The notes below the pieces were generated by a model, which was not told the DNA's origin, did not search any database, and worked only from the letters and a program-made list of their open reading frames with translations. Source: Chitinivibrionales bacterium (GTDB lineage Bacteria; Fibrobacterota; Chitinivibrionia; Chitinivibrionales; WJKA01). Taken from it: a stretch of 64,000 nt of DNA. Position 1 is the stretch's first letter; each line of letters opens with the position of its first letter. A program made the position numbers and the translations under genes. The stretch is taken from the NCBI GenBank assembly GCA_038247415.1, contig JBBRUX010000007.1, positions 1-64,000 of the forward strand, in the 5' to 3' direction. This document shows, one piece after another, positions 12,647-62,623 of the stretch.

Positions 12647-12653
12647 AGGGCTC

Positions 12654-29257: not shown

Positions 29258-29319
29258 TAAAATGATTTTTTGCTGTTGTAGTGTTGTAGTAACTTTTTCA
29301 ATTTTTCAGGGGGTTGTGT

Positions 29320-29808: not shown

Positions 29809-29827
29809 CCCGAAAGGATGATGTCAA

Positions 29828-31252
29828 ATGGTTTTTTCGTCACACATATTCATCTTCTACTTCATGCCGATTTTCTTCTTGATTTATTATCTCTTGCCGT
29901 TTAATTGGAAAGGGTTCTATCTCAAGAACAGTTTTATCACCATATCAAGTTATATTTTCTACGGCTGGCTTGTTCCTTGGTTTGTTGTGCTTATGCTTTT
30001 GTCTACTACGTGGGATTATTTTTGCGGCTTAGTTATCACCAAGCCGGGACAAGTCCAGTGGAAACGAAAAGCTGCGCTGCTTACAGCAATTATTGGTGAT
30101 ATGGGACTTCTTGTATTTTACAAGTACTACATGTTCACAATGGAAAATGTCAATGCCATGCTTGGGCTTTTGGGCATGGGTCCCGATATGTTCCCTATTA
30201 TGAATGTTATGCTTCCATCTGGTATTTCTTTTTATACCTTTGTTGCGCTATCCTATACGATCGACCTTTATCGTGGCGATGCAAAACAATCTCGAAATTT
30301 TCCAACATTCAGTTGCTTTATTGGATTGTTCCCGCATCTTATTGCTGGTCCTATTATCCGGTATCAATCGGTTGCCGATCAGCTTGGCGAACGTACTCAT
30401 ACTATTGATAAGTTTACCAGTGGTGCTGCAATATTTTGTTTGGGTATGGCCAAGAAAATTATTTTGGCAAACTCTGCAGGTCAAATTGCCGATGCTGTGT
30501 TTACAGCAGATAACCCGGGTGTTCTCAATGCATGGTGGGGTATTTTAGGGTATCACTTCCAGATTTATTTCGATTTTTGCGGCTACTCAGATATGGCCGT
30601 AGGGTTGGCTCGCATGCTGGGTATTGAGTTTATTAAAAACTTCAATGCACCGTATATGGCAACAAATATTACGGTGTTCTGGCGAAGGTGGCACATATCG
30701 CTTTCTGCGTTTATTCGGGATTATCTCTATATCCCACTCGGTGGAAACCGGTTTGGCACAACGCGTACCTATTTCAATTTGGTGCTTACCTTTTTCCTCT
30801 GCGGTTTGTGGCATGGTGCTAAAATGACGTTTGTCATTTGGGGTGTGTATCAGGGTGTGTTCCTTATCCTTGAACGTCTCAGCGGCAAGAAGACCGTGTA
30901 TGGTTTTCTTCCAAACTTCATGCAAATTATAATAACGAATATTATAGTGATGTTTGGATGGGTCATGTTCCGGGCTCCTTCTATCGATCAGGCATTAGCC
31001 TATTGGGGGTCAATGGTTGGAATGGTTCAAGCCTCGGTAGCAGCGCCTATTTTGTCGTCTGAAATCTTTTCGCCACGGCATATTTTTGAAATCGCAGTGT
31101 GCGCATTGGCAACATTTCAGCCTATACAGGCGCATGATTGGGTTAAAAATCTGTCAAAGCCAAAACTTGTGGTTTGCAGTCTATTGTTTTTGTATTCAAT
31201 CATTGTGATGTTTACTCAGACATATAACCCATTCCTTTACTTTCAGTTCTAA
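29828..31252 (+). CDS. MBOAT O-acyltransferase, AlgI/PatA type
   Basis: MVFSS, FYKY, GISFYTF, FPHLIAGPI, QIYFDFCGYSDMA, FWRRWHISLS, GLWHGA, PFLYFQF. Confidence 0.95.
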   Translation: MVFSSHIFIFYFMPIFFLIYYLLPFNWKGFYLKNSFITISSYIFYGWLVPWFVVLMLLSTTWDYFCGLVITKPGQVQWKRKAALLTAIIGDMGLLVFYKYYMFTMENVNAMLGLLGMGPDMFPIMNVMLPSGISFYTFVALSYTIDLYRGDAKQSRNFPTFSCFIGLFPHLIAGPIIRYQSVADQLGERTHTIDKFTSGAAIFCLGMAKKIILANSAGQIADAVFTADNPGVLNAWWGILGYHFQIYFDFCGYSDMAVGLARMLGIEFIKNFNAPYMATNITVFWRRWHISLSAFIRDYLYIPLGGNRFGTTRTYFNLVLTFFLCGLWHGAKMTFVIWGVYQGVFLILERLSGKKTVYGFLPNFMQIIITNIIVMFGWVMFRAPSIDQALAYWGSMVGMVQASVAAPILSSEIFSPRHIFEIAVCALATFQPIQAHDWVKNLSKPKLVVCSLLFLYSIIVMFTQTYNPFLYFQF

Positions 31253-31269
31253 CATAAGGATTTTTCGTC

Positions 31270-32937: not shown

Positions 32938-33027
32938 CAGCTCTTTTGTTCTTCACATGCTTTGTGCATGTGGAAAATGATGCGTAAGAGGTTTCGTATG
33001 ATATATTTTCTGAACATCTGAATAACT

Positions 33028-33067
33028 GCGCGCAATCTTTTTAAAAGATTGCGCGCTTTGCTTTTTT
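33028..33067 (+). terminator. Hairpin with T tail inside the operon (terminator or attenuator)
   Basis: GCGCGCAATCTTTT / AAAAGATTGCGCGC inverted repeat at 33028-33056 followed by TTTGCTTTTTT. Confidence 0.5.
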
Positions 33068-33083
33068 ACCAAAAGGAGTAACT

Positions 33084-46700: not shown

Positions 46701-46881
46701 CATTGCAATTTTCAGTCTCATTCCGATGCTGTATGCAAGCGGAACCGGCTCGGAAATACAAAAGCCATTGGCCGTAGTTGTTGTTGGGGGTCTGGTGACA
46801 TCAACGCTTTTGACGCTTTTCTTAATTCCTTCCCTGTATGGGTGGTTTGAAAATCGAAAAAAGGTAGTTGAAGAGGTTTGA
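43774..46881 (+). CDS. CusA/CzcA family heavy-metal efflux RND transporter
   Basis: IDAFPDVTNIQV, DIYFARQLV.ERL, SLGGLAISIGMIMDS...VEN, RLRPVLMTA, GSEIQKPLA. Confidence 0.95.
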   Translation: MLEKIISSLLKQRAGVLLIIALIIGIGTYSYYKLTIDAFPDVTNIQVDVVSYADGLSAVEIERSVTYPVEMSMRGLPKVKQLRSVTKFGLSLVTIVFEDNVDIYFARQLVFERLAQAKESVPPGVELSMGPIATAMGEIYQFTLDGKMPDDAQKKKEYLTQLRTLQEWVINPLLKSVPGVNEINSFGGYFKQYDVIVSPEKLLKYNIALSDVFAAIENNNQNAGGNILEKYSDQYIVRGIGLIKDTTDIGNIVLKSIDGIPTLIKDVAQIQLGEAVRQGASMINGKDEVVGGIVMMLRGENSRDVVNRVKAKVKEINGNNALPKGIQIVPYYDRSDIINASIGTVNKALLEGALLVLVVLYLLLRSMRGSCVVLMGLPLSLLVTFIVMKAWGISANLMSLGGLAISIGMIMDSTIIQVENVQRKLNEAKASAHRMSTILKAVLEVQKPSIFGVLIIAITFIPILSLEGIEGKMFAPLAITVAIALLASLVVSILITPGLCLLFLKPQTEKPGGIMNGIKKVYMPLLRKSIRKKKVMIGIAIAALGVSLGLFTKIGTEFLPIMDESAFDLDVSLLPGVSLDKAMEINMLIGEKMKKFPELKTVVSRTGQTGVALDTRGVDKTGYVGVLYPKKQWKIKRTHEQLTEAMRDSLSSIPGIAFSFSQPIQCRIDELVAGTKAQLILKLFGDNLEVLKEKATDIEKILSSIEGCTDLVTESISGQPYLTIEIDRLKIARYGLAIRDVQEIIEIALAGKIASQLYEANKSFDISVRLPQEHRTSVETIGNILVPTPTGSNIPLSQISTIAISVGPVQISRDDGLRRIGIELNISGRDIGSFVAEAKQKIMEKAKLPEGYYIMWGGQFENQQRAMAKLVMVGPIAIGLILILLFLTFRTIRLSLLVISNLPFALIGGMFSLWISGLYLSVPAAVGFIVLFGVAVLNGVVLVSHIAQLREEGMDLQNALETGCANRLRPVLMTASIAIFSLIPMLYASGTGSEIQKPLAVVVVGGLVTSTLLTLFLIPSLYGWFENRKKVVEEV

Positions 46882-47136
46882 TTCACAGGATGAAAGCATT
46901 TTTATTGTGGGCTCCGTAAAGGAACTTGATTTAAAAATGCTTTTTTCTTGTAGCACTAATCCTTTTGGTGTTCATCCCCGTCGAATTAAATCCACCCACA
47001 TATCGACCGTGTTCCATGGCTAATGCGTGTCGTTGATATCACGAAATGGTTCTCCGATTGCTTTGGTTCCTTGGGGAGCAGTATATTTTACAGTATTAGA
47101 TAGTGTCTCTCTTTTCTTTGCGCGAAGAGGTTGTAT

Positions 47137-47916
47137 ATGAAGAGAATTTTTTTTTCCTGCTTAAGCTGGATATTGGTTACTGTGGGTCTTTTTAGCATGG
47201 CCGGGTGTAGCGCCAGCAAAAATAATGTATCTGGAAAGACTTCGGCACTCTTTGTTCGTGTGCAAGCAACGGTAAATGGGGAAGATTTGAAGTATGGTTC
47301 GGTTTATAAAACCAGCTCTGGTCGACAATTTAGGATTTCAGATTTTCGTTATTACCTCACGAGAATCGGCGCTACCCGTTCCGATGGAACTCAAAACGCC
47401 CCGTTTGATTCTGTTATCCTTATTTCTCCAGATTTACAAAGTTCCTATCTTCGTGTCCCTGTTTTACAAGGGGCGTATAAATCCTTACAATTTACAATCG
47501 GTTTAGATTCACTCAAAAATCATGGAGATCCCACCGTATACGCTTTGCCTCATCCATTGGCTATTCAGACTCCGAGCATGCATTGGGATTGGAACAGCGG
47601 GTATCTCTTTTTGAAATTAGAAGGGTTGGTTGATACTACGGTACAGGCAAATGGCCCAATAAATACGGAATATTTTTACCATATTGGCCTCGATACTATG
47701 CTGCGAGCGGTTGATATCCCCATAGCATTTTCAGTGCCGTCTTCTGGTGCCTGCTCACTGGACGTACGCTGCGGGATCGATTCGATTATAGCGCATATCG
47801 ATTTTTTAAAAGAGAGATCGACCCATACTTTTGATAATCTTCCCTTGGCGCAAAGGATTATGGATCGCATAATCAATTCGTTTGCTGTTGTCAATATACA
47901 TCCTGCAATTCAGTGA
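47137..47916 (+). CDS. mbnP: MbnP family copper-binding lipoprotein
   Basis: Lipobox MAGC; FRYYL, FTIGLD, MHWDWNSGYLFLKLEG (WxW motif), YHIG. Confidence 0.82.
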   Translation: MKRIFFSCLSWILVTVGLFSMAGCSASKNNVSGKTSALFVRVQATVNGEDLKYGSVYKTSSGRQFRISDFRYYLTRIGATRSDGTQNAPFDSVILISPDLQSSYLRVPVLQGAYKSLQFTIGLDSLKNHGDPTVYALPHPLAIQTPSMHWDWNSGYLFLKLEGLVDTTVQANGPINTEYFYHIGLDTMLRAVDIPIAFSVPSSGACSLDVRCGIDSIIAHIDFLKERSTHTFDNLPLAQRIMDRIINSFAVVNIHPAIQ

Positions 47917-47939
47917 TAGTGTGCAGATTTGGCTGAGAG

Positions 47940-48968
47940 GTGCAATTTGTGGAAAAACAAACCCGATTTGTAGTATTTGTTCTTTGTGTATGTGGAGCAG
48001 GTATTGGCATTGGCTTAATTGGCGTGTATTTCTACTTTTCTCCCTTCTTGGATCAGAGCAATCAGATTGTACACTATAAAATACCCCGAGGTTTTCCGTA
48101 TCCTCTAATTCCTGTTGATAATCAGCCTACCAAGAATCGTATCGCATTGGGTAAGCAGCTTTTTTTGGATCCTATCCTCTCAAAAGATTCAACTATTTCG
48201 TGCGCATCCTGCCATAAAGAATCGGCTGCGTTTGCTGATGGTTTGCCTAAAAGTAAAGGTATTAATGGGAACTTTGCTTTGCGTAATGCCCCAACTATAA
48301 TTAATTGTGCATACCTGCCGTATACTACCTGGGATGGAGGGGTACCAACACTTGAGCAACAGGTTCTTGTTCCCATAGCAAATCCTTTAGAAATGGGCTT
48401 TGATATTAATAAGGTTGTGGAGAGGCTTAAAAGAGATCGAAATTATGTGAGTTTGTTTAAGAGTGCTTACCAACAAGGTCCCTCAGTATATACCCTTACT
48501 CGGGCTATTGCATGCTACGAACGTTCACTTTTGAGTACTGGTTCCCGATACGATAGATTTCTTTATGAGAAAGATACTACCGCATTAACACAATCTGAAA
48601 AAAAAGGAAAAGATCTCTTTTTTGGTGAACGAGGAGAGTGCTTTCATTGTCATGGAGAATACAACTTTACCGATTATAGTTTCAAAAACAATGGGCTCTC
48701 TGAAATATATGCAGATTCAGGCAGAGCACGCATTACGTTATCGCGTAGTGATGTTGGCAAATTTAAGGTTCCATCGTTACGAAATATTGCGCGCACAGCT
48801 CCTTATATGCATAATGGCTCTATTGTTACGCTAGAATTGGCGGTAGATCATTATGCACGGGGTGGATATGCTCATCCTAACAAGAGTGGCCTCATTAAAC
48901 CCATCAATTTGACAGATAAAGAAAAAAGTGAACTTGTAGATTTTTTAAAAGCACTTTCCGATGATTAA
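47940..48968 (+). CDS. mbnH: Di-heme cytochrome c peroxidase family protein (MbnH/MauG-like)
   Basis: LGKQLF.DP.LS, CASCH, RNAP, WDG, CFHCH, FKVPSLRNI..TAPYMHNGS; directly after mbnP. Confidence 0.85.
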   Translation: MQFVEKQTRFVVFVLCVCGAGIGIGLIGVYFYFSPFLDQSNQIVHYKIPRGFPYPLIPVDNQPTKNRIALGKQLFLDPILSKDSTISCASCHKESAAFADGLPKSKGINGNFALRNAPTIINCAYLPYTTWDGGVPTLEQQVLVPIANPLEMGFDINKVVERLKRDRNYVSLFKSAYQQGPSVYTLTRAIACYERSLLSTGSRYDRFLYEKDTTALTQSEKKGKDLFFGERGECFHCHGEYNFTDYSFKNNGLSEIYADSGRARITLSRSDVGKFKVPSLRNIARTAPYMHNGSIVTLELAVDHYARGGYAHPNKSGLIKPINLTDKEKSELVDFLKALSDD

Positions 48969-50487: not shown

Positions 50488-50643
50488 ATATTTATTTCGA
50501 TTGTCCAAGGAATAAATTGTTTTGAATTGAGCCGGCCCTATTATGACGTCGGTGCACAATCCATTGCTTAATAGATCCACAATGGCAAACGTGGCTGGGG
50601 ATACCAAGGAAGCAATTTAAAATGGATGCCATTATAAAATCCT

Positions 50644-51500
50644 TTATCTGTTTTCTTTGGTCAAATCGGATCCTGCGATTGATGGAATTAATTTTAAAAG
50701 TTCCATAAATGCAATTGCGATAACCCCACCGGAAAGTGCCAAAAGTACATCTGTTATAGAAACATTTCCAAACTGAAAAATATTTTTAAGAAAAGGCAGT
50801 GTGAAAATTAGGCTCATCAGGACTGTTGTTCCGTCCATTAGCCATCTGAACGCAGCATTCTTTTCAGCGTGCAGACGGGATCGATAATCAGTTCAAGAAA
50901 AACAATATGAACGGGAAATAGAATAAGAGGCCATTTAAAAAGGCCTGGTATCCATGAGAGTCCTGTAATTGGTATATGAACCGAGAGAATATACATCATA
51001 GCTTTTTTGAGGTTGTCATAGATGCGTCGTCCCATGCGAACTGCTGTCACAATAGAATTAAAATCGTCATCAGGAAGAACAAGAGATGCAGCTTCGCGGG
51101 CAACATCGGTACTACGACCACCCATGGCTATGCCGATATGCGCAGCCTTAAGTGCGGGGGCACCGTTGACACCATCGCCGGTTGTGGCGACTATTTCCTT
51201 GTTAATCTTTAGAGCATTGACAATACGTAGTTTCTGTTCCGGTACCATGCGAGCGAATATATAACTTCTTTGATCTGCACAGCAAGTTCATCATCACTCA
51301 GAGCTTCGAGTTTCGAGCCACTGTGTTTGTGTCTTGTCGAAGTGGCATAAGTCCGCACTTGCTTCTGGTGCGCCTTTGGCTGCAATTACCAATTAATCAC
51401 CCGATTCGGAAGTCCACACGCGCGACATTGCGAGAAGCTCTTTACTGAGAGGATATTCGCGCTGTAAGTTCCAGGAAGCATAAAGATGCTCAATTTTTGC
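50644..51500 (-). pseudogene. Cation-transporting P-type ATPase remnant
   Basis: Fragments REYPLSKELLAMS, KGAPE preceded by an in-frame TAA, FARMVPEQK, TGDGVNGAPAL (Asp lost), GRRIYDNL; frameshifts and large deletions. Confidence 0.85.
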
Positions 51501-51831
51501 AAGACTACTTTCTAAATATATTGCAAGGTGAAAAGGAAATCAAATAGTAATTATCCTTATTTGAAGTTCAGCCAATTTGCAGCCCAATTTTTTAACTTTG
51601 TGGAAGTCATAGCTGCATACGCCAGTCGTGGGGGATGAGATTGCAATGATACGTTGAGATGATATGCTGCTGTCAATCAAGAGATTGGTCGCCGCTAGAT
51701 CGACAATAGGTGACTAAGCGGCACTAGCTTTTGCCGCAATTATCATGTTGCCTATGAAAATTAGTCGTACCATTTTGTCGAGAGCAAATTTCAATGGCGA
51801 CGAAATCATTGCGGAAGCTTTATTACCCGGC

Positions 51832-53016
51832 CTAAAACTTTTTCGTTATCGACATATCAATGGTGTGATACGTATAAGAATTTTTTCCAAAAAAAGAATA
51901 AGCACTATAAGGTTGTGAATAAATCTTATACTCGACACCAAGGGAGGTATTCCACCAAAGGTTTTTTGCCATTGAAGCTGTAAAAGTCAACGGAGCCAAG
52001 CCATTATAGAAGTAGTAAAAATCTCCAAAGCCAGCAAGGATATTTTTGGGGACAGATTGATAGTATCCCCGATACGTTCCGCCAGAAACAAGAGGCATGG
52101 TAATTTTACTAAACAAATTATTGATTAGCGCTTCGTTACTGGCCCATTTCTTTTCAAATGCTAGAATGCAATGAGCAGACCATTCATCTTGTGGTGTTGT
52201 ATAAGGTGCATAGCCGTATAGAATTTCGCCAGAATCAGTTTCTGCTAATGGTAGATAAAAATTTTCTTGGGTTGTACGGTAAGCGATTGACAAGCCACCA
52301 TACAAAACAGGAGTAATGGGGCCGAATGTGTAAAATGAAAAGTTGTGAAGTGTATTTTCGGGGAGTGGGTTTGTAGCATCATCAATAAAATTTCTCAGTG
52401 GATTTACCACGTCAAAAAATGTCTTGAAAAACAGAGTGTCATTTAAAATCGTATTCAGGTCTTTTCTGTCAACACTCTTATACTGATCATTCTGGTAATC
52501 GCAGTGGAACTCCCACTGTGCAACCTGTGCGGCGACATCGGCGCCAATGGAGCGTTTTGTAACGCCGATATATTGTGCAAAAGGATTTTCGGCAGTAACG
52601 CCATAATCAAATCGCACGTGGGGTGACCATCGAACGGCCGGTGCCGCAGGTAGTGTAAATGACAGTGGTAGCGAACCACTGAAACGCATGCGACCAGATT
52701 TTCCTGTTGGATACCAGACCTGCTGATATGTGGGTGTGGCCTCAAAGGCGCCAATCGTTAAAAAATAACTGCACCCCGCAGAAATCCTTTTGTCTGCAAT
52801 GGGTGCAAATCCGCTGATGGAATGGGATATTTTAGATTCCTGATAATCAACCGATGCAGAAATAAGTCCAAGACCAGCTTTAAAATTTTTCAATTTCGCT
52901 TCTACGTCTGTGGCATGGAAGTATGTGTTGTCAAAAAGATAGCTGTACATTCCAGAGATCTCCCGACTTGAAACGATGGATACGGTGAGCATAAGTATGC
53001 TCAACAGAATTTTCAT
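51832..53016 (-). CDS. Hypothetical outer-membrane beta-barrel protein
   Basis: Signal peptide, aromatic-rich alternating strands, C-terminal SITKKF; ATGA overlap with the upstream gene. Confidence 0.55.
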   Translation of the reverse strand: MKILLSILMLTVSIVSSREISGMYSYLFDNTYFHATDVEAKLKNFKAGLGLISASVDYQESKISHSISGFAPIADKRISAGCSYFLTIGAFEATPTYQQVWYPTGKSGRMRFSGSLPLSFTLPAAPAVRWSPHVRFDYGVTAENPFAQYIGVTKRSIGADVAAQVAQWEFHCDYQNDQYKSVDRKDLNTILNDTLFFKTFFDVVNPLRNFIDDATNPLPENTLHNFSFYTFGPITPVLYGGLSIAYRTTQENFYLPLAETDSGEILYGYAPYTTPQDEWSAHCILAFEKKWASNEALINNLFSKITMPLVSGGTYRGYYQSVPKNILAGFGDFYYFYNGLAPLTFTASMAKNLWWNTSLGVEYKIYSQPYSAYSFFGKNSYTYHTIDMSITKKF

Positions 53017-54353
53017 CGTATAACCCTATTCTTAAATGTAAAAACGTCTAGATTATTGCTGATAGTTACTACATACATTCCCTTGACGATAGGCTTTGAA
53101 AAGTTGATAGATGTAGTGTTGTGCTCTACCGGCATTTGGAGCAACAGTTTTCCGTCGGGTGTGTGTATCCGCACCATTGCACCTAGCAAGCCGGTCATTG
53201 CGCCCATAGCAAGGCTGGAACGGGTAAGTGTGGGCGATAAGGCGGTTCTGCGTATCGATGGAATCAAATTTTTTACATCGCGAACATCGGTAAAAAGCGA
53301 CATCGGAGCTATTTTGAGCGTCATTGACGTTCCGCTCTTGTCGAACCAGCACAGCGTGTCGCTATGTAGTGTTGGATGTCCCTGGTATCCTGGCGCAACA
53401 ACAAGCGGAACGGTAGTGCCGGACACGGTATTATACCCATAGATGTCTGCATTGGTACTGTCGGTTGATGTTGCGTTGCGAAAGTCTTCCCATACAATCC
53501 AGTTCCCTCGAACAAAGGGGTTTCCTTGATATTTTGAGGCTATACAAATCGGAGTTGTTACTCCATTTGTCAAATTGTATGAATAGATGTCTCCGTTTTT
53601 ATGATCTACTGTGGCATTACGATAATCTACCCAGACAGCGACATTACCATCGATGCGTGGATCATCTTTCCCAGCAGAAAAAGGGGCAATTTCGATACCT
53701 GATGAGGTGACTGGAGTATACGAAAAAAGCCGCCCAAAAGACTGTGCATTATCTATCCAGACAATCGAACTACCGTCGGTAAACGGTTTGCCTTGGTATG
53801 CATGATCATTGGTTATTCGACGCTCTTGGTTTGCAGAAAGATCATACATGAAGATTTCGCTATTGAGACTGTCGACTGAGGTAGAATCCCAATAGCGGTA
53901 ATCCACCCAAATAGCATAGTTCCCCCCAACCCAGACAGCTTCTTTCCAACTGCTGTTTGTGGTCAATTGTCGAGTAACATTGGTACTAATATTTTTTTCA
54001 TAGAGATAACAGGTACGGCCTCCGCTACCTGCTCCACCACCAGAACCAGGCGTTCCAGATGCAAGGTATGGAACATACACCAATCGGTTATTCGCATAGC
54101 CATAAGTGATGTAATAGGGCATTGAGTTGTCGCTTGGGACAGCAACGGTTTTAGCTTTTGTAGCAAGTGTTACGAGTGAAACCTGGGCCCAGTAGAGAGA
54201 GGACGTGGCATAATGGTAGTCAAAACAGGCCATTTTTCCCTGAGACATGACCCCCCAGGTATCGGTGCTTACCGATGTCAATACTTCCTCGGAAGAAACC
54301 GCAGCAATGAGTAGTGGAAAGCTTACCGTTAGTATTTTGAGTATGCGATTCAT
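53013..54353 (-). CDS. Secreted beta-propeller repeat protein with T9SS-type C-terminal tail
   Basis: Repeats W(V/E)D(Y/F)RN...DIY.Y and Q..P; tail IHTPDGKLL...KGMYVVTI. Confidence 0.7.
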   Translation of the reverse strand: MNRILKILTVSFPLLIAAVSSEEVLTSVSTDTWGVMSQGKMACFDYHYATSSLYWAQVSLVTLATKAKTVAVPSDNSMPYYITYGYANNRLVYVPYLASGTPGSGGGAGSGGRTCYLYEKNISTNVTRQLTTNSSWKEAVWVGGNYAIWVDYRYWDSTSVDSLNSEIFMYDLSANQERRITNDHAYQGKPFTDGSSIVWIDNAQSFGRLFSYTPVTSSGIEIAPFSAGKDDPRIDGNVAVWVDYRNATVDHKNGDIYSYNLTNGVTTPICIASKYQGNPFVRGNWIVWEDFRNATSTDSTNADIYGYNTVSGTTVPLVVAPGYQGHPTLHSDTLCWFDKSGTSMTLKIAPMSLFTDVRDVKNLIPSIRRTALSPTLTRSSLAMGAMTGLLGAMVRIHTPDGKLLLQMPVEHNTTSINFSKPIVKGMYVVTISNNLDVFTFKNRVIR

Positions 54354-55423
54354 AGATTTTCTCCTTTGTGATAGGTTTTGATTTTTATGTGATCTGTAAT
54401 TTCTTTTTTGTCTATTTTTGTATACACCTCCGCATCGCTTGTGAAACTCAGGTCAACCGGTAATCCTGACGGTGTCTGTGCCTGGGGCGCATCGAATATT
54501 ATAAGGCCTTTAACAAGAGGGAAGTTTTTGGTGGCAAGCGAGTGAAACATATCGCGGTACCAGTCGTTCTTGTTGCCGCCGCCTTGCCCACACCCAGCCT
54601 CGGCGATTATAATGGGCTTATTATAGCCCTTAACAGCATCGTAGAGGATTTTTGTTACCGTATAAAAATCCATCCACAAACCGTTTTCGGCCAGCGAACC
54701 AAAGTTAAATATGTCGAGTCCGATCCAATCGACATATTTATCGCCAGGGTAGTTTGCCGTGTCTGCTGGGATATAGGGATTCCAAACAAAAGCGACATTA
54801 CGCGCTCCTTCCTGGGCAAAGATGTCGTGCACATGGCGCCAGAACCTCTTGTATGATTCTGGCGAATTTCCGTGTGAGGTACTCCAAGAGTACCACGGGT
54901 TGGACATCTCGTGCCCGGGTCGAAGGAAAAAAGGCTTTTTAAGCTTCGCCGCCTCCCGTGCCCAGGCATGTATAAACAAATCAAATTGACCTTGACTGAT
55001 GATATTCAGGGACGAGTCTACCTGACTATCCCTAAATTTTTTAAAGGCCGATACCCAAGGCTCCCAGGTTATCAAGGGAGTGTAACCGCCATTGACAAGA
55101 TTACGATTGACATCGGTTAAAAAAGCATGCTCTTTCTGGTCTCCCCAAGCCTGGTAATAGGAGACGATTGAGACCTGCGCACTTAACCCTTCCTGAACCA
55201 CAAACAGCATTCCGAATTCATAGGGTAATTCGGGCCGGTAAAGTCCAAGAAAAAATTCACTTTCTTGTGTCAATGCAATCTTGTCTTGGACCAGGTTTTT
55301 TGTAACACGCTGATAATAGACTTCGAGCCCCACACGCTCAAATGGTTTTATCGCATAGATATAGGCTGCAACAATAATACCAGATATTAGAGCAATTTTT
55401 AGCATGATAAAAATGCTTTTCAT
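54350..55423 (-). CDS. Glycoside hydrolase family 26, membrane anchored
   Basis: ITWEPW, LRPGHEM (acid/base), WYSW, YPGDKYVDWIGLD, KPIIIAE (nucleophile); N-terminal TM. Confidence 0.88.
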   Translation of the reverse strand: MKSIFIMLKIALISGIIVAAYIYAIKPFERVGLEVYYQRVTKNLVQDKIALTQESEFFLGLYRPELPYEFGMLFVVQEGLSAQVSIVSYYQAWGDQKEHAFLTDVNRNLVNGGYTPLITWEPWVSAFKKFRDSQVDSSLNIISQGQFDLFIHAWAREAAKLKKPFFLRPGHEMSNPWYSWSTSHGNSPESYKRFWRHVHDIFAQEGARNVAFVWNPYIPADTANYPGDKYVDWIGLDIFNFGSLAENGLWMDFYTVTKILYDAVKGYNKPIIIAEAGCGQGGGNKNDWYRDMFHSLATKNFPLVKGLIIFDAPQAQTPSGLPVDLSFTSDAEVYTKIDKKEITDHIKIKTYHKGENL

Positions 55424-56925
55424 GCACCACACCCCTTTTTTGGAAACAAGCCCCAGAATACCACAGGGGCTAATGACACAACATTCATTACTGCAAATAC
55501 CATCATAAGCTGCGTGCCGCTATCGATCCGAGGATATGTTGTTAGGACAAATGCGATTGACATACACGACAAAAGGATGGCGATTATATGCGGGAGCACA
55601 AGCGTTATGCTTGTTTTTTCGGATCCCGATTTAGGCGTGGGAATCCAGACAATATTCTTTCCTGTTAATGAATAAAAAAGAGCCAGCGTATAGATGTGCC
55701 ATGTCCCTTTTTCCAAAAACATCGAACGCCAGGGGAAGCCTTTTTCCTGCGGCGCCGAATACCAGCGCTGGATATACATACTGAGCATAAGCGAAGCGAT
55801 CACATACGGCGTTATGTGCAGGAAATATCCGCTTATAGGCATTTCTATTGCATATATCTTGAAAAAGATAAAAATGACAGGCAGAATAATTGTTAATAAA
55901 GTAACAGCTCCATTCAGATAAAATGTCCCGGCAAACAGGTAGTAGATTTTTTGTTGAATATTGAGATTAAAAAATGCCTTTGGATATTCGTGCAGCAAAA
56001 GATCAAACATTCCTTTGGCCCATTTGATCTGCTGTTTAAAGAATGACGCAAGGTCTTCGGGTACGAGTCCGTATGATGCACGATACGGCACGTATCGTCC
56101 TTTCCATCCGGCAGCATGCAATCGAAGGGATGTGCAGGCATCTTCGGCCAAATGGACTGCATGGCCATCAATAGAATCAAGTGCCGCGCGACGAAAAGTA
56201 CAATTAGCACCAATGGCAATTGCTGAATCAAGGCCAGAAAGTCCCATTTGCAGTGGCCCGTAAAATCCAAACCCCTGCTCGGCAGCGGCGTGTGCAACCA
56301 CATTTTTATCAGCGTTATAATATGCCTGAACAACCTGAACAAATCCCACTTTTTCATCGTTGAAATATGGCAGTGTTCTGTCAAGAAAATCCGGTTCGGG
56401 TATGTGGTCGGGGTCAAGCACCAGAACAAGCTCAGCCTTCGAGAAGTTTTTAAGGCAGTAGTTTATTTTCCCCGCCTTTGCTCCGGGCACCCCTTTACAA
56501 TTTATATGCCCAACTCCCAATTCTGAGCACAGCGATTTAAGTTGCGGATCATCGCTTCCATCAAGAAGGTAGGATGTGTGTGGATGTGTAATCTTTTGCA
56601 TTGCAATCAGGGTTGTCCGGAACATATCACATGGCTCGCCCGGCATGGCAGTTGTAAAAATATCGACTGTCCGGTGCGTTGTTGAGGTGTGTAGTGACGG
56701 GATGGCAATAAACTGGAAAAAGATCCAACTTATTACTGATCTAACAACGCCACGAAAAACAGCATAACTGAGGAGTATAAACAGAAAAATATTGACGCGA
56801 TGGCCTCCAAAAAACCAGTAGTCGGCCCAGTACAGTGCTGCTTCGATAGCAAGTATCGTGAGTATGGCAAACAGTATTCTGTCCCACCAGCCAATCCTTA
56901 TGGTTGTCTGCCCTGTAGAGTACAT
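55420..56925 (-). CDS. Cellulose-synthase-like processive GT2 (no PilZ domain)
   Basis: Two N-terminal TMs, LLDG, GAKAG, DPDH, QVVQAY, LAED, QQIKW, multiple C-terminal TMs, W.PTPK. Confidence 0.88.
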   Translation of the reverse strand: MYSTGQTTIRIGWWDRILFAILTILAIEAALYWADYWFFGGHRVNIFLFILLSYAVFRGVVRSVISWIFFQFIAIPSLHTSTTHRTVDIFTTAMPGEPCDMFRTTLIAMQKITHPHTSYLLDGSDDPQLKSLCSELGVGHINCKGVPGAKAGKINYCLKNFSKAELVLVLDPDHIPEPDFLDRTLPYFNDEKVGFVQVVQAYYNADKNVVAHAAAEQGFGFYGPLQMGLSGLDSAIAIGANCTFRRAALDSIDGHAVHLAEDACTSLRLHAAGWKGRYVPYRASYGLVPEDLASFFKQQIKWAKGMFDLLLHEYPKAFFNLNIQQKIYYLFAGTFYLNGAVTLLTIILPVIFIFFKIYAIEMPISGYFLHITPYVIASLMLSMYIQRWYSAPQEKGFPWRSMFLEKGTWHIYTLALFYSLTGKNIVWIPTPKSGSEKTSITLVLPHIIAILLSCMSIAFVLTTYPRIDSGTQLMMVFAVMNVVSLAPVVFWGLFPKKGCGA

Positions 56926-57770
56926 TATTTTACCCATAAGAGTTTTTCCAGACTTAGTTTGGCACGTTTGTTGTCGGGAGCTATAATTATCATGTTTTTA
57001 TATGCATCCCGCGCTTCACTAAATTTACCCGTCCACTCAAGTATCTGGCCCTTGAGTTGCAATGCGTCAAGAATGCGATCACGTACTTCTGGAGGAGCGC
57101 TTGCCGGCTTTCGATCCATTGCAATGACACTGTCCAGTTCACTTAATGCCGCGAGCGACTGGCCCTTCCATGCAGTTACTTCCGCACGACGGATTTTAGC
57201 GTGCATACGAAGGGTACGAGGGGCACTTGGGTCATCGACAACTCTGGTAAAAAGCGCTATCGATTCGTCAAACTTCTTTTTCCAGGAAAGAACCTCGGCT
57301 TTATGGTTCATTGTTGCCCAAGGTTGCTTTTCTTTTGCGATCATGCTGTCGTAACATGCAATGGCTTCATCGAATTTTCCCAGCATTTCCAAACGCATGG
57401 CAAAAACATTTTTATAGGCATGTTGGGTTTTGTTAGTTACTTTGTCGAGCAAACTGCCGGCTTTTTTGAATTCTTTTTTCCACAGCAATACTTCTGAGTA
57501 ATGTATAAGCACAGGATCATCGGCCTTCCCTGATGCAACTACCATTTCTAGATACAAAACAGCCGAATCTGCTTTGTAAATATGATAAAATGCTTCCCCT
57601 TTAAGCCGGAATGTTTCGTTGTTGTGTGTGCATTCTGCCAGAATTACAAGCGCTGTGTCATAATTTTGTTTACTAATGGCCTGCATCGCTTTTTTCTGAC
57701 AGGCATCTTGTGCCTGCAATGGCATAGTCACGTAGAACAGCATCAGAATCGACCAATGAGCAATGGTCAT
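56925..57770 (-). CDS. Exported tetratricopeptide repeat protein
   Basis: Signal peptide (LQA), helical TPR-like repeats (AEVLSW..KFDESI, GQILEW.GKF.EA). Confidence 0.8.
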   Translation of the reverse strand: MTIAHWSILMLFYVTMPLQAQDACQKKAMQAISKQNYDTALVILAECTHNNETFRLKGEAFYHIYKADSAVLYLEMVVASGKADDPVLIHYSEVLLWKKEFKKAGSLLDKVTNKTQHAYKNVFAMRLEMLGKFDEAIACYDSMIAKEKQPWATMNHKAEVLSWKKKFDESIALFTRVVDDPSAPRTLRMHAKIRRAEVTAWKGQSLAALSELDSVIAMDRKPASAPPEVRDRILDALQLKGQILEWTGKFSEARDAYKNMIIIAPDNKRAKLSLEKLLWVK

Positions 57771-58711
57771 GGTTCGCATACAGCAACTCTCCTTTTGCGT
57801 TCAAAGTCAATGGTTTTATTTATTCCAGCATCCAGACTTGTACTCGGTTGCCAGTTGAGAATTTTTTTAGCTTTTGTGCCGTCAACGCAATACTCCCACG
57901 ACTCTTTGTCGCGATAAGGAATCGCACCTGGCCGTACTTTATTCTTTTCACCAACCAATTTTTCTACCATGACAGCAACATCTCGCAGCATGGGAGCATG
58001 TCCGGTTCCAAGGTTGAAAAGACCGGAAATTTCGGGCTGATCAAGAACAATCTCAATGGCATTGACCAGGTCATCGATATAAATAAAGTCTCGGGTCTGT
58101 TCGCCTTTTGTCATGGGAAATTCCTTTCCATCCAGCAGCGATGAAACCAGCGTTGGAATAAACATTGCGTTTGTCTGACCAGCACCATAGAGTATACCTA
58201 TTCTGAAAATCACCCACGAAAGAGCGTATCTGTTGCCATAAAATCGGATAAGCTGCTCACTCATAAGTTTTGATAAGGCGTAAAAATCGCCCGGATCAGT
58301 CTGCATCGCTTCGGTGAATGGACCTTTTTGACTGCCATATACCAGTGCTGTTGACGGAAAGACTATACGCGCCTTGTGCTCTTGTGCCATTTCGAGGAGG
58401 AGAAACGTTGCCTGAATATTTGAATTCATAATAGCAAAGTAGGTGTTCGTGTCTGATGCTTGGGAAATGATTGCTGCAAGATGTATGATAGTGTCAAACC
58501 TATACATTAGAGAAAGTTTTTCGATACACGGTCGGCTTGATAAATCCCCTTTATGATATTCTATACCTGCGTGAAGGTTTTCGTTCAATGGAATAAAGTT
58601 TTCGTGAACATCAACGGCGACAATATTCGTTTTTGGCCGATTGACAAGAAAATTGATGAGATTGCGACCCACAAAGCCGTTTGCGCCGGTAACAAGAATT
58701 ACATTGTCCAT
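57767..58711 (-). CDS. NAD-dependent nucleotide-sugar epimerase/reductase (SDR)
   Basis: LVTGANGFVG, IHLAA, YALSK, GEQTRDFIY; ATG 58711 with GGAGG RBS. Confidence 0.87.
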   Translation of the reverse strand: MDNVILVTGANGFVGRNLINFLVNRPKTNIVAVDVHENFIPLNENLHAGIEYHKGDLSSRPCIEKLSLMYRFDTIIHLAAIISQASDTNTYFAIMNSNIQATFLLLEMAQEHKARIVFPSTALVYGSQKGPFTEAMQTDPGDFYALSKLMSEQLIRFYGNRYALSWVIFRIGILYGAGQTNAMFIPTLVSSLLDGKEFPMTKGEQTRDFIYIDDLVNAIEIVLDQPEISGLFNLGTGHAPMLRDVAVMVEKLVGEKNKVRPGAIPYRDKESWEYCVDGTKAKKILNWQPSTSLDAGINKTIDFERKRRVAVCEP

Positions 58712-59802
58712 GGTAAACCTCCTTGTGCAGCTTTTTCCACATAGAGTGCCAAATCTTCTGCTGTGGAAACAGTATTGATGGTATAAAAGTTTTTGTACCA
58801 CTGAACTGTCCGTTCAAACGTAGTTTCGAGATCCCATGTTGGATGCCACTTTAGCATTGAATGCGCCTTTGAGCAATCAAGACTGAGGAAGCGCGCTTCG
58901 TGGGGGTTTTTTTCCGACGATTGGATTTCGTATGCGATGGCAGCCCAGTATTTTTTGACTTTGCGTACAACCTCTTCGACGCACAGCGAACCTTCGGGTG
59001 GTGGACCGAAATTAAACGCAGTTGCAAAGTCGCGCTGCTCCAGCAGTAGGTGTTGACCTACTGTTAAATAGCCGCTTAAACATTCCAGAACATGCTGCCA
59101 TGGGCGTGTAGCATGGGGACTGCGAATGACAACTGTTTCCTTGTGGGAACACGATCGCATGATGTCGGGAATAAGCCTATCTCGCGCCCAGTCTCCGCCA
59201 CCAATCACATTGCCTGCACGCACACTTGACAAAAGGATGTTGTGGGATTTGCCATATTCTGCAAGATTAAAAAATGAATTGCGATAGCTTGCAATCATTA
59301 TCTCTGCGCATGCTTTAGAGGAGCTGTATGGGTCATATCCTCCGAGTTCATCAACTTCCCGATATCCCCACCACCATTCCCGATTCTGATAGACTTTGTC
59401 TGTGGTGATTGCCACAATAGCGCGCACCGATTCGGATGCGCGACACGCTTCCAATACATTCATTGTGCCAATAACATTTGTGCTGTAGGTACCCACCGGA
59501 TCGACATATGAATCGCGCACAAGGGCTTGCGCTGCAAGGTGAAACACAATTTCAGGTTTTTTTTCTGCTATTGTTTTACCGAGCAATTCAGTGTCGCGAA
59601 TATCACCGATGATTGAATTGATATCTAAGAATAGGCTGCTAAAGTGATTAGGTTCAGATTGTGGCTGCAAGGAGTATCCGGTGACCTCGGCTCCCATTTT
59701 TTTGAGCCAATATACCAACCATGACCCCTTGAAGCCCGTGTGACCTGTTACAAAAACTTTTTTACCTGCGTAAACTCCATTAAACAAATTTCGAAATTGC
59801 AT
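58699..59802 (-). CDS. rfbG: CDP-glucose 4,6-dehydratase
   Basis: TGHTGFKGSWL, HLAAQALVR.SY, TTDKVY, DPYSSSK, RAGNVIGGGDW, RPWQHVLE. Confidence 0.95.
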   Translation of the reverse strand: MQFRNLFNGVYAGKKVFVTGHTGFKGSWLVYWLKKMGAEVTGYSLQPQSEPNHFSSLFLDINSIIGDIRDTELLGKTIAEKKPEIVFHLAAQALVRDSYVDPVGTYSTNVIGTMNVLEACRASESVRAIVAITTDKVYQNREWWWGYREVDELGGYDPYSSSKACAEIMIASYRNSFFNLAEYGKSHNILLSSVRAGNVIGGGDWARDRLIPDIMRSCSHKETVVIRSPHATRPWQHVLECLSGYLTVGQHLLLEQRDFATAFNFGPPPEGSLCVEEVVRKVKKYWAAIAYEIQSSEKNPHEARFLSLDCSKAHSMLKWHPTWDLETTFERTVQWYKNFYTINTVSTAEDLALYVEKAAQGGLPWTM

Positions 59803-59813
59803 CGTGTGCTCCT

Positions 59814-60662
59814 TTACCAGATTTTCCAGGGTGCTTTTTTATCATTCCACATCGCGTTGAGGGCCATGTAGTCTTTATACGTGTCCATGCAGTGCCAGAA
59901 ACCTTCGTGCTTGAACATTCCCAATTGACTGCTGCGTGCTAATCGCTTGAAAGGCATCTCCTCAAGAACACAATCGTCACCAGTTATTATGTCGAATATA
60001 CCCCGATTGAAAACAAAAAAACCGCCATTGATAAGACCTGACATAACTGGCTTTTCCCGGAATGATGTCACCATATCTTCGGCATCAGCTTCAACGATTC
60101 CAAAGGTTGTTGGAAGATGCACTCCGGTAAGTGTTGCGGTTTTACATTTTTTTTTGTGAAAAGCCAGCAGAGCACTGATATCTACGTCTGAAACGCCATC
60201 ACCATAGGTACAAAAAAAGAGGTCTTCGGTGATATACTTTTCGATTCGTTTTATTCGGCCGCCGGTCATAGTGTTTTCGCCGGTAAGGGCAAAGGTGATT
60301 TCCCATTCATCAACGTCTGCGTCGGTGGCTGGGCTCATTTTATTTAAATCACTTCTTTCTCCGGGACCTTGTGGATTAAGATTTCTGGTAAAAGGAGAGC
60401 TGCTAATTTTCATGGTAAAATCGTGATTGCGTTTGTGGTAATTTGCAAAGTAATCGATGATTGTTTCGCCTTTATAGCCAAGGCACAAAACAAATTTTTT
60501 AATGCCATAGGTCGAATACGTCTTCATGATATGCCAGAGAATTGGCTTACCGCCAACATCGATGAGCGGCTTTGGGAGCGATTCCGAAACCCCCTTTATC
60601 CGTGTTCCCTGTCCGCCGCACAGAATAACTACCTGATACTCGGCCAGATCACTGATAGCCAT
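59814..60662 (-). CDS. rfbF: Glucose-1-phosphate cytidylyltransferase
   Basis: LCGGQGTRI, PKP, ILWHIMK, TMTGGR, TYGDGVSD, INGGFFV, GFWHCMDT, APWKIW. Confidence 0.94.
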   Translation of the reverse strand: MAISDLAEYQVVILCGGQGTRIKGVSESLPKPLIDVGGKPILWHIMKTYSTYGIKKFVLCLGYKGETIIDYFANYHKRNHDFTMKISSSPFTRNLNPQGPGERSDLNKMSPATDADVDEWEITFALTGENTMTGGRIKRIEKYITEDLFFCTYGDGVSDVDISALLAFHKKKCKTATLTGVHLPTTFGIVEADAEDMVTSFREKPVMSGLINGGFFVFNRGIFDIITGDDCVLEEMPFKRLARSSQLGMFKHEGFWHCMDTYKDYMALNAMWNDKKAPWKIW

Positions 60663-60896
60663 AAAACCCTCCTGAAAATTTTAAGTTTCCTGCATGTCTG
60701 TATGGGTGTGTCTCTTGAAATATAGCATTTTTAAAATTAAATGTGAATAGAATTAATTCAATTAATTTTTATTTTTTTTCTTAATTAAGTATTTAGCCTA
60801 TTAAAATCAATAAGTTGCATAATATTAGTGAATAAAATATTTTATAAAATATTTATATGTGTTGAAGTGTTCGTCAGTTTTGTATATTATCATAGT

Positions 60897-61730
60897 ATGA
60901 AACCAGAGCTTTTTACCTATCTCGATTACCGACATTATCTCAAGGACCTTTTTGAAGCGCTGAAAAAAGGAGATGAGGGATTATCGTACCGCATGTTTGC
61001 AAAAATGGCCGGTTCAAGTTCGCCTAATTTTTTACAGCTCATCATCCAGCGCAAACTTAACATTGGGCAATCGCATATCAGAGCTCTTGCTGAATCGATA
61101 GTGCTTTCCAAAAAAGAGGAAGGTTTTTTAGAAACCATTGTTGCCTTTGACCATGCCAAAACGCATGAAGAAAAAAACAAATACTACCGCAGAATGCTTT
61201 TAACGCGTGAATATAGCTCAATAAGGCAATTGCAAAAGGAACAATACTCCTATTTTTCCAAATGGTATCTGCCGGTTATTCGTGAATTGGTTGTTGCATC
61301 GGACTTTACAGGAAATATGACCGCGCTTGGTGATCGTATTGTCCCGCCTGTATCTGCGAGCAAAGTTAAAAAAGGAATTGCACTATTGGAATCGTTGGGA
61401 CTTATACAAAAAGATCCAGACCGCTATATACTATCAAATGCAGTTTTAAGTACGCCTTCCGAGGTTATCTCGCTGGCAGTAACTCACTACCACAAAGACG
61501 TGATTGCGCTTGCGGCAGAGGCAATCGAAAAGTTTCCTGCGCAGGATCGCGACATTCGCGCAGTAACGCTGGGTGTTGATGCCGACGGATTCCTGGAAGT
61601 TAAACAACGCCTCGAAAGGTTTTGGAAGGAGCTTCTAGAATTTGCTGATACGCAGAAAACTCCCACCCGGGTCGTGCAGGTCAACATGCAGCTTTTTCCG
61701 TTGACAAAAGACAAGGAATTTAAAGCATGA
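60897..61730 (+). CDS. TIGR02147 family protein
   Basis: F.YLDYR.YL.D, SYR.FA..AG.SS, Y.YFSKWY..VIREL, QVNMQLFPL; start moved to ATG 60897. Confidence 0.85.
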   Translation: MKPELFTYLDYRHYLKDLFEALKKGDEGLSYRMFAKMAGSSSPNFLQLIIQRKLNIGQSHIRALAESIVLSKKEEGFLETIVAFDHAKTHEEKNKYYRRMLLTREYSSIRQLQKEQYSYFSKWYLPVIRELVVASDFTGNMTALGDRIVPPVSASKVKKGIALLESLGLIQKDPDRYILSNAVLSTPSEVISLAVTHYHKDVIALAAEAIEKFPAQDRDIRAVTLGVDADGFLEVKQRLERFWKELLEFADTQKTPTRVVQVNMQLFPLTKDKEFKA

Positions 61731-62623
61731 TAATCAGAACAAAGAGTACCGTCTTTTGCTGTGCACTGCTTTTGTGTGCATTTCTTAAATGTACCTCAGG
61801 CAGTGGCGACCCGCTTGCAGGTGGTTCGGGTAGTGGAAATCCAGGTGGTGGATACACAACGCTCTCACTTTTCGTAGACACATCCGCCACAGGCAATTTA
61901 CAAAAAACAATTGCGCAAGCACCAGCACAACCCTCAACTGGTGGTCCTCAAACCGGACGTCAGCGCTATTCTGTCCATGATGCATCTGGCATGGTCCTTA
62001 CCATCGACTCTGTTGTCATTATAGCACAGCATGTGTCCTTTGCACTCGATTACTTGTTGTCGTGCGACTCATTGCTGGCAGGTTTTGATACATCGCTTCA
62101 TTGTGGCTATTCTGGCATGAGCATTAAGGGCCCAATACAATTTAATTGCCTCGCGCGTTCATCTGTTCCGGCTCTTGGTTTTGTCAAGCTTCCGATTGCC
62201 AGCTATACAGGCGTTGTATTTCATATTAGCATCGACACGACCCAGCCAGGAATTCAGTCCACGACAAGTGCGGCCGATTCCGCATGGCCAATTTTCGTGC
62301 ATGGTTCATTTACATACCTCGATACACTCAGGTCGTTTTTTGTCCGGTGCTCACTGAATATGGCCATTCCTTTCAGAAGTGCAGATTCTGGGTTTACGGT
62401 CTCACAAGGGGACACCACAGATCTGTCGGTGGTTTTTGACTGTCGCGACTGGTTTGCTGGGATGAATCTGAAAGAGAGTCTTGATAATAGGGATATCTTA
62501 CTTGATAGCCAAGGGAACTTGATTATCGATGATACGCAAGCAACCGGGCCAGGGTCTAATGTGGTGGTGCAAATTAGGAACAATCTCATTGGCTCGGGGA
62601 GGTTGGGTGTTAATCGACGGTAG
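61727..62623 (+). CDS. Hypothetical lipoprotein
   Basis: Hydrophobic signal ending FLKC, LAGGSGSGNP linker; ATGA overlap with the TIGR02147 gene. Confidence 0.65.
   Translation: MIIRTKSTVFCCALLLCAFLKCTSGSGDPLAGGSGSGNPGGGYTTLSLFVDTSATGNLQKTIAQAPAQPSTGGPQTGRQRYSVHDASGMVLTIDSVVIIAQHVSFALDYLLSCDSLLAGFDTSLHCGYSGMSIKGPIQFNCLARSSVPALGFVKLPIASYTGVVFHISIDTTQPGIQSTTSAADSAWPIFVHGSFTYLDTLRSFFVRCSLNMAIPFRSADSGFTVSQGDTTDLSVVFDCRDWFAGMNLKESLDNRDILLDSQGNLIIDDTQATGPGSNVVVQIRNNLIGSGRLGVNRR

Follow-up and report, generated by a model that had tools for sequence, protein, structure and literature searches.

The stretch of DNA analysed here (the window) comprises 64,000 nucleotides from a Chitinivibrionales bacterium of the phylum Fibrobacterota (positions 1 to 64,000 of the forward strand of contig JBBRUX010000007.1, assembly GCA_038247415.1). 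Its minus strand carries, at 60662-51832, an eight-gene operon in which a cytidine diphosphate (CDP) sugar cassette, made up of rfbF, rfbG and a gene for a short-chain dehydrogenase/reductase (SDR), is followed by genes for a tetratricopeptide repeat (TPR) protein, a cellulose-synthase-like glycosyltransferase of family 2 (GT2), a glycoside hydrolase of family 26 (GH26), a beta-propeller and a beta-barrel (Table 1). We found that the cassette stays linked to the synthase in other phyla, and that one residue in a nucleotide-binding motif of the synthase changes together with the presence of the cassette. On balance, we lean towards a system for synthase-dependent exopolysaccharide secretion in which a CDP-6-deoxyhexose is the substrate that the GT2 polymerises. 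An initial annotation of this DNA had suggested a synthase-dependent beta-glycan that may be built from, or decorated with, a CDP-activated sugar, and both the linkage and the architecture of the machine support this suggestion; the donor of the GT2 and the sugar of the polymer we infer from the evidence set out below.

Linkage of the cassette to the synthase

Because operon genes are ordinarily packed tightly, what carries weight here is that other genomes keep the same gene set. In the order to which the window belongs, 40 relatives were compared and eight of them carried a GT2 orthologue at 50-60% identity, all other matches being paralogues at no more than 35%. The rfbF-rfbG-SDR cassette and the TPR, GT2 and GH26 genes lay together and colinear on six of these eight contigs; the other two (6.6 and 3.2 kb) end too early, and the linkage was thus found on 6/6 long contigs. 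A scan of one genome per species gave 134 confirmed relatives, the best 80 of which were used. A GT2 tree was built from 77 of these loci (denoted by L numbers below), the window and two paralogue outgroups, while L076, L081 and L087 were left out because they had no GT2 open reading frame (ORF) at the threshold. Iterative GH26 and TPR profiles were contaminated by fused proteins, and those two columns were not used for counts.

The tree consists of two clades, A with 38 rows and B with 40 rows, including the window. Clade B spans Fibrobacterota, Candidatus Raymondbacteria, Calditrichota, a KSB1-type metagenome-assembled genome (MAG), Ignavibacteriota, Chlorobiota, Bacteroidota, Acidobacteriota and Myxococcota. 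The cassette was present on the same contig in 33 of the 40 clade B rows: 30 were detected by hidden Markov model (HMM), to which we added L047, with a divergent dehydratase, L084, whose contig is cut inside the cassette, and L043, where 12.7 kb separate the cassette from the machine, upstream and on the same strand. In four rows the contig is cut before the cassette would be reached, and three rows (L051-53) lack the cassette; no rfbG was found in the genomes of these three at E up to 1e-40, all being MAGs of unknown completeness. The gene order is barrel-GT2-GH26-rfbF-rfbG-SDR in Sorangium and TPR::barrel-GT2-rfbF-rfbG-SDR-GH26 (a double colon marking a fusion) in L062, a Prolixibacteraceae MAG. 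Since the order differs in these two lineages, selection seems to have acted on the linkage rather than one layout having simply been inherited, and the retention of linkage through rearrangement is the strongest genomic sign of shared function. All 31 loci with rfbF and rfbG also had the SDR gene, and rfbF alone occurred in none. Moreover, no second glycosyltransferase was conserved at the locus among the more than 50 cassette-bearing loci compared. Two loci hold additional genes: in L043, a Chlorobiaceae MAG, a PorV/PorQ-like protein and a 1,550-aa protein are encoded between cassette and machine (2297-7899), and in L062 a gene for a cadherin-like protein with a type IX secretion system (T9SS) tail adjoins the locus (3737-5818).

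Clade A consists entirely of Bacteroidota, in which GT2::GH26 is a single protein of about 1,260 aa encoded behind a gene for a GH2_C-like TIM-barrel protein. These fusions (Christiangramia, Pedobacter, Spirosoma, Segetibacter, Neolewinella and others) resemble the window system as a sister clade with 40-44% GT2 identity, a QQLKW motif and GH26; they differ in their upstream TIM-barrel gene and in that no TPR, barrel or CDP genes were found at their loci, and in their GT2 the DDG motif reads D-E, Arg stands where the window has C143, and AKAGN is present. Four of five clade A genomes had neither TIGR02622 nor TIGR02623 matches over the cut-off, and Segetibacter had both, unlinked to the fusion. 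About 450 C-terminal residues of the fusion, beyond GT2 and GH26, belong to no known family (L050, L054, L073, L078 and L086, around 8500-13800). Its cultured carriers are Christiangramia, Pedobacter, Maribacter, Neolewinella and Segetibacter, and no description of the fusion paired with the GH2_C-like TIM-barrel protein was found in the literature.

The window GT2 carries the motif set of processive synthases (D, DxD, ED, Q-x-x-[RK]-W and a gating loop) in the form D122-G123 (DGS for DDG), DPDH (D171-x-D173), AED (E261-D262), QQIKW and PTPK. Alignment to E. coli and Rhodobacter BcsA equates D122 with Rhodobacter D179, G123 with D180 and C143 with R219. According to the passage on this motif in a study of Rhodobacter BcsA, D179, the first Asp of DDG, coordinates uridine diphosphate (UDP) (PMC8892547). 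For poplar CesA8, the corresponding passage has an Asp of the 'invariant DDG motif' hydrogen-bonded to a ring nitrogen of uracil, and a Glu and a Lys sandwiching the uridine (PMC9934533). This Glu and this Lys correspond to E97 and K150 of the window GT2, and D122, E97 and K150 are conserved in all rows.

When GT2 columns were compared between cassette-bearing and cassette-free rows, position 123 separated the two groups. It is Gly in 33/33 cassette rows and in the four cut rows, so that the equivalent of DDG reads DG[GST] there, and it is Asp or Glu in 41/41 rows without the cassette (the L051-53 rows, like the outgroups, have Asp, and each of the 38 clade A rows has Glu). At the C143 position, cassette rows have Cys, Ser or Met; L051-53 have Leu, and both clade A and the outgroups have Arg. 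We then used a metagenome scan prospectively; its search patterns favoured clade B, and it returned 80 loci, 37 of G-type and 43 of D-type. Where a G-type locus had 4.5 kb or more of upstream sequence, rfbF/rfbG were always present (17/17). Another 17 G-type loci without the cassette had less than 1.8 kb upstream, four of them showing an SDR fragment at the contig edge. The cassette was found in 0/43 D-type loci; flanking sequence of 5 kb or more was available on both sides in 15 of these and on at least one side in 25. In a combined FastTree of 156 rows, 117 of them informative, Gly was present in 51/51 cassette-bearing rows and Asp or Glu in 66/66 rows without the cassette; the association is perfect, yet these are not 117 independent observations. 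The initial annotation had proposed, as a check, to see whether rfbFG-SDR remains linked to the GT2-GH26 pair in other genomes; this linkage was seen in the long same-order contigs, in clade B and in the metagenome loci.

Predicted roles of the encoded proteins

The RfbF and RfbG families make CDP-4-keto-6-deoxy-D-glucose; RfbF would make CDP-D-glucose, which RfbG would dehydrate to the keto-sugar. The window RfbG passed the cut-off of TIGR02622 (496.2 bits against 278.45). RfbF scored 295.4 bits against TIGR02623, below the cut-off of 300.25 and in two stretches, because an insertion of about 25 aa falls between model positions 81 and 88. Since Fibrobacterota orthologues align over the full 282 aa, they share this insertion (residues about 90-115), which is seemingly missing from the RfbF of L062 (260 aa) and of L047. 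The operon holds the sole copies of rfbF and rfbG in the genome.

The SDR matched PF01370 (E = 1.4e-45) and has a GxxGxxG glycine-rich loop, a Ser-Thr pair and YxxxK, without the TDE dehydratase motif; its nearest solved structures are generic epimerase/dehydratase folds at 1e-29, and NCBIfam and the protein atlas gave likewise generic assignments. A keto-sugar needs a reductase, and the SDR is therefore most simply a C4-reductase. From its place after rfbG, we infer a CDP-4-keto-6-deoxyglucose 4-reductase that would yield a CDP-6-deoxyhexose of D-quinovose or D-fucose configuration. Across the whole genome, the best match to the RfbH model NF011936 reached 194 bits, against a cut-off of 423, whereas the relative L106 has an RfbH (709 bits) beside its rfbFG. 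The lack of RfbH excludes the 3,6-dideoxy branch.

The HS:41 route of Campylobacter jejuni, a CDP-D-fucose/CDP-6-deoxy-L-altrose pathway, offers a parallel in gene roles. A study of this pathway describes a cytidylyltransferase, a CDP-glucose 4,6-dehydratase and a C4-reductase producing CDP-D-fucopyranose without the E1/E3 pair (RfbH/RfbI) (PMC12369002). HS:41 differs in feeding a capsule repeat unit; it also includes a 3,5-epimerase and a pyranose/furanose mutase, neither of which was found among the eight proteins. A relative of the same family, L104 (G005:C22), has an rfbF-rfbG-SDR cassette of the exopolysaccharide-linked type at 1758-5271 (65%, 57% and 38% identity), followed only by short MBOAT and AlgX fragments and then by unrelated genes; its genome has no GT2 orthologue, and L104 looks like a decayed locus.

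The catalytic core of the GT2 matched BcsA structures at 2.4e-37 (phmmer). Its scores against synthase models were far below the cut-offs or weak: 177.8 bits for TIGR03030 CelA (cut-off 699), 148 bits for PRK11498 (cut-off 992) and only 47 bits for the PgaC model. QQxKW, with Lys replacing Arg, occurs in all 78 family rows where BcsA has QxxRW. No PilZ or GGDEF family was found in the eight proteins, although a cryptic site for cyclic diguanylate (c-di-GMP) is still conceivable, and no BcsB was found in the whole genome. We therefore rejected BcsA proper as an identity for this protein, given scores far below the cut-offs, no PilZ, no BcsB, and DGS where DDG is expected. Of the absences listed in the initial annotation, those of rfbH and bcsB hold over the whole genome and those of the PilZ, Wzx and Wzy families among the eight proteins.

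The GH26 passed the PF02156 cut-off (55.5 bits against 20.2). Its nearest structure, at 1.2e-24, is the GH26 module of Clostridium thermocellum endoglucanase H (CelH), which we take to be a lichenase; no mannanase matches better than 1e-12. The two catalytic-Glu motifs, HE and AE, can be aligned with this C. thermocellum structure. This kinship to a glucan-active module would fit a gluco-configured, beta-linked chain. A mannan or glucomannan was rejected, the GH26 being far nearer to the CelH module than to mannanases.

The TPR protein has a weak match to the PgaA TPR model beside those to TPR families, and TPR::barrel fusions occur in L062, L047 and L051-53. Profile searches found no family for the barrel, and a homologous-protein search returned only two matches. 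We modelled the barrel and the propeller with AlphaFold2 on orthologue alignments. The barrel model (predicted local distance difference test score, pLDDT, 92.5) is all-beta, and its best Foldseek matches are BcsC (9b8a/6tzk, 1.5e-9), followed by the polysaccharide secretin 4y25, presumably PgaA, and PelBC (9h80); AlgE is a weaker match (7.4e-6, template modelling score 0.43). An HMM run over the loci detected the barrel in the window and in 34/80 related loci, in varying places, and the 'unknown' genes of 396-415 aa in the loci of same-order relatives are barrel homologues. The propeller model (pLDDT 84.9) is TolB-like, with TolB as the best Foldseek match (3e-13) and PL22 lyases and PorZ lower. 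A small separate beta domain is modelled at 375-446, and residues 393-441 match the T9SS sorting domain TIGR04183 weakly (18.4 bits, cut-off 23). The propeller is missing from many loci.

Some same-order relatives have genes for an AlgI-like MBOAT and an AlgX-like SGNH protein inside the locus, an acetylation pair of the type that belongs to the alginate and acetyl-cellulose systems. The initial annotation had recognised the architecture of synthase, TPR protein, porin and periplasmic hydrolase, and the BcsC and PelBC matches of the barrel, the TPR::barrel fusions and the acetylation genes of relatives agree with it. Among the features that define synthase-dependent systems, a GT2 synthase, a porin of the BcsC/PgaA/PelB/AlgE kind, a TPR scaffold and a periplasmic hydrolase are present; the remaining feature, a c-di-GMP receptor such as PilZ borne by the synthase or by a co-polymerase, was not found. 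Elsewhere in the window, at 26537-35090 on the plus strand, lies a cluster encoding an SDR, a 241-aa GT2, a second SDR, an unknown protein, an AlgI-like MBOAT and two AlgX-like SGNH proteins. Its MBOAT is 34% identical to the in-locus MBOAT of L013, and the cluster could acetylate the polymer in trans or serve another glycan.

Like BcsA-BcsB-BcsZ-BcsC, the system combines processive GT2 motifs, a periplasmic endoglycanase partner, and TPR repeats with a BcsC-like barrel. BcsZ is a GH8 enzyme, and GH26 stands in its place here. The window system differs from the cellulose system in lacking PilZ and BcsB, in having TPR and barrel as separate genes, in its DG[GST] and QQxKW motifs, and in its own CDP-sugar cassette, whereas cellulose relies on UDP-glucose. 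The alginate operon also holds precursor-synthesis genes (algD/algA), like the cassette here, and alginate export is similar in the separation of TPR protein from barrel (AlgK/AlgE) and in the MBOAT and AlgX-like SGNH proteins of relatives' loci. However, the donor predicted here is CDP-activated rather than guanosine diphosphate (GDP)-mannuronate, a hydrolase replaces the lyase, there is no Alg44-type PilZ co-polymerase, and the barrel fits AlgE less well than BcsC. The poly-N-acetylglucosamine (PNAG; PgaABCD) and Pel (PelA-G) systems share the TPR-porin export module, including fused forms, and the 4y25 and 9h80 matches of the barrel; unlike them, the window system has another synthase subfamily, and no deacetylase or c-di-GMP receptor was found in it.

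Donor of the synthase and nature of the polymer

In the pathway that we favour, the GT2 would draw on the CDP-6-deoxyhexose as its donor, either as the only sugar or in alternation with another, and would polymerise a beta-glycan and thread the chain across the inner membrane. The membrane-anchored GH26 would trim the chain in the periplasm, and the TPR protein would pass it to the BcsC/PelB-like barrel for export. The secreted propeller may act on or bind the polymer at the surface, which is the weakest step of the scheme. Four observations suggest to us that it is the GT2 that consumes the CDP-6-deoxyhexose: the locus has no other conserved transferase, the cassette genes are inseparable, the genome's only rfbF and rfbG are here, and the nucleotide motif changes with the cassette. 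A more specific form of this proposal is put forward tentatively: the donor may have switched from a UDP-sugar to a CDP-6-deoxyhexose, the change from DDG to DG[GST] and the loss of the R219-equivalent Arg may constitute the specificity switch, and the secreted product may be a poly-6-deoxy-beta-hexan ('6-deoxy-cellulose' or D-fucan-like).

Several points weigh against a CDP-6-deoxyhexose donor. We know of no processive GT2 synthase with demonstrated use of a CDP-sugar. The base-contacting first Asp, D122, is kept, and an effect of the neighbouring Asp-to-Gly change on base choice is a conjecture. On the combined tree the trait changes only three times, giving three independent contrasts, all concordant (sign test, p = 0.25). 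The SDR has an Asp after beta-strand 2 that fits NAD-binding epimerases and NADH reductases alike, so its reaction is not fixed by this signature, and the Sorangium and L062 SDRs are only 23-29% identical to that of the window. An rfbG tree did not place the exopolysaccharide-linked copies in one clade against four other copies (132/500 shuffles were as low); co-travel of the cassette with the GT2 was thus not shown by this tree, which supports neither view. Moreover, the cassette is missing from more distant GT2-GH26 relatives, namely the 38 rows of Bacteroidota, the L051-53 type and 43 loci from metagenomes. Since they run the same core, the core machine does not need the cassette, and the ancestral GT2 donor was something other than a CDP-sugar, probably UDP-glucose.

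These cassette-free relatives, 40-46% identical and with the same GH26 partner, also lend support to a GT2 that still builds, as they must, a plain beta-glucan of cellulose-like or mixed-linkage type with UDP-glucose as donor. In that case a glycosyltransferase from another locus would attach the CDP-6-deoxyhexose as a side decoration, cap or primer, or the sugar would be destined for another co-regulated glycan. The glucan-active kin of the GH26 and the conservation of D122, E97 and K150 point the same way. In addition, 21 of the 41 genomes in the order have rfbG, frequently within classical clusters that include RfbH or RmlC-like genes, and other GT2, SDR, MBOAT and AlgX genes lie about 20 kb off in the window. 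We nevertheless consider this rather unlikely, given that no second glycosyltransferase is conserved at the cassette-bearing loci, that the cassette is still adjacent after rearrangements in three phyla, that DDG changes exactly with the cassette (51/51 versus 0/66 informative rows), and that in a synthase-dependent system it is hard to see at which cytoplasmic step side chains would be added. CDP-glucose itself might be the donor for a plain beta-glucan, with RfbG and the SDR diverting part of it to an unrelated deoxysugar: rfbF is the first gene of the operon, and a change in nucleotide specificity alone would explain the DDG variant. Against this stand the 31 loci in which rfbF never occurs without rfbG and the SDR gene, as well as the translational coupling of all three cassette genes to the machine, which argues that the end product is needed; we judge this alternative improbable. 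Finally, the locus might not encode an exopolysaccharide exporter but glycosylate or anchor a surface protein, such as the propeller with its T9SS-like tail, or build a periplasmic or outer-membrane glycan. The weak sorting-domain match of the propeller, the PorV-like gene in L043 and the T9SS-tailed protein beside L062 are compatible with such a role, which is nonetheless very improbable in view of the exopolysaccharide porins that best match the barrel, the TPR::barrel fusions that mirror PgaA, BcsC and PelB, the AlgI/AlgX-type acetylation genes embedded in relatives' loci, and the absence of the propeller from many loci.

Synthase-dependent systems, such as those for cellulose, alginate, PNAG and Pel, are the best-understood routes to biofilm matrix polymers, and to our knowledge all of them draw on UDP- or GDP-sugars. 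A full-text literature search that covered few subscription journals found no paper on a CDP-deoxysugar cassette with a synthase-dependent exopolysaccharide, and none joining GH26, cellulose synthase-like proteins and exopolysaccharide. Searches for CDP-glucose with cellulose synthase, and for synthase-dependent exopolysaccharide with Fibrobacter, matched only unrelated literature, and the main text of a survey of synthase-dependent operons has no mention of GH26, cytidylyl, CDP, Fibrobacter or Bacteroidetes (PMC7112194). The architecture described here is familiar; the precursor supply, the hydrolase family and the DDG motif change are not. If a CDP-6-deoxyhexose is indeed polymerised, this would be the first CDP-sugar-driven synthase-dependent exopolysaccharide pathway and would bring a new polymer chemistry, that of hydrophobic 6-deoxy chains, to the class. 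It would also provide a natural experiment on nucleotide choice by BcsA-like synthases, with a one-residue signature in an otherwise invariant motif, and would suggest that Fibrobacterota, Ignavibacteriota and soil Myxococcota produce a matrix polymer so far unstudied. The proposal can be tested in cultured strains, since the linked form is present in two complete Sorangium genomes (So ce1099 and So ce388) and the cassette-free sister form in cultured Bacteroidota (Christiangramia, Pedobacter, Spirosoma and Segetibacter).

Layout of the locus and other genes of the window

All eight ORFs reported in the initial annotation were found at their coordinates and assigned to families or folds, and its count of overlaps at 6/7 junctions was confirmed, with the type of overlap at SDR/TPR and TPR/GT2 depending on the choice of start. 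The rfbF/rfbG junction is an 11-bp gap. At rfbG/SDR the genes overlap by 13 bp, AAGGAGG preceding the SDR ATG at 58711, and GT2/GH26, GH26/propeller and propeller/barrel are joined by ATGA overlaps. The SDR/TPR junction is an ATGA with start 57770 or a 13-bp overlap with start 57779, which has the better Shine-Dalgarno sequence. TPR/GT2 is a TAATG with start 56925 or a 13-bp overlap with start 56937, the latter giving the N-terminus MGK common to orthologues.

Table 1. Genes of the operon and adjoining features in the window
Feature	Position	Strand	Basis
rfbF-type glucose-1-phosphate cytidylyltransferase, 282 aa	59814..60662	-	TIGR02623, PF00483
rfbG CDP-glucose 4,6-dehydratase, 367 aa	58699..59802	-	TIGR02622
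Extended SDR, 314 aa, putative CDP-4-keto-6-deoxyglucose 4-reductase	57767..58711	-	PF01370 and place after rfbG
Periplasmic TPR protein, 284 aa, signal peptide	56925..57779	-	TPR_19, TPR_2, other TPR families
BcsA-like processive GT2 synthase, 505 aa, without PilZ	55420..56937	-	PF13632/PF03552, BcsA structures
GH26 glycoside hydrolase, 357 aa, N-terminal membrane anchor	54350..55423	-	PF02156
Secreted beta-propeller, 446 aa, small C-terminal beta domain	53013..54353	-	TIGR04275 repeats, AlphaFold2 model
Outer-membrane beta-barrel, 394 aa, predicted export porin	51832..53016	-	AlphaFold2 model and Foldseek
DUF4423 protein, 300 aa, divergent, candidate regulator	60828..61730	+	PF14394, E = 4.6e-37
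Intergenic region, 165 bp, likely operon promoter	60663..60827		promoter-like site 60747-60719

The best minus-strand promoter-like site upstream of rfbF has 10/12 matches and a TG extension; it is a pointer only, as promoter and terminator scans gave site counts at the expectation for shuffled sequence. An Rfam scan of 50500-61500 gave no match at E up to 1, and hence no c-di-GMP or other riboswitch. The DUF4423 gene adjoins the locus in nine other loci. In the window it is overlapped by a gene for a 298-aa protein without known family (60828-62623, plus strand, divergent from the operon), which recurs in L013 and L020, and together the two genes may encode a pair of regulators. Downstream of the barrel gene, beyond an ORF-free gap of about 545 bp, the minus strand at 50838-51287 encodes only the C-terminal part of a P-type ATPase (the end of the HAD domain and the last helices), probably a gene remnant. 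Further away, the plus strand at 43774-48968 encodes an AcrB-type RND pump, then an MbnP-family protein and then a di-haem peroxidase of the MauG/CCP type; MbnP/MbnH-like pairs are usually tied to copper handling.

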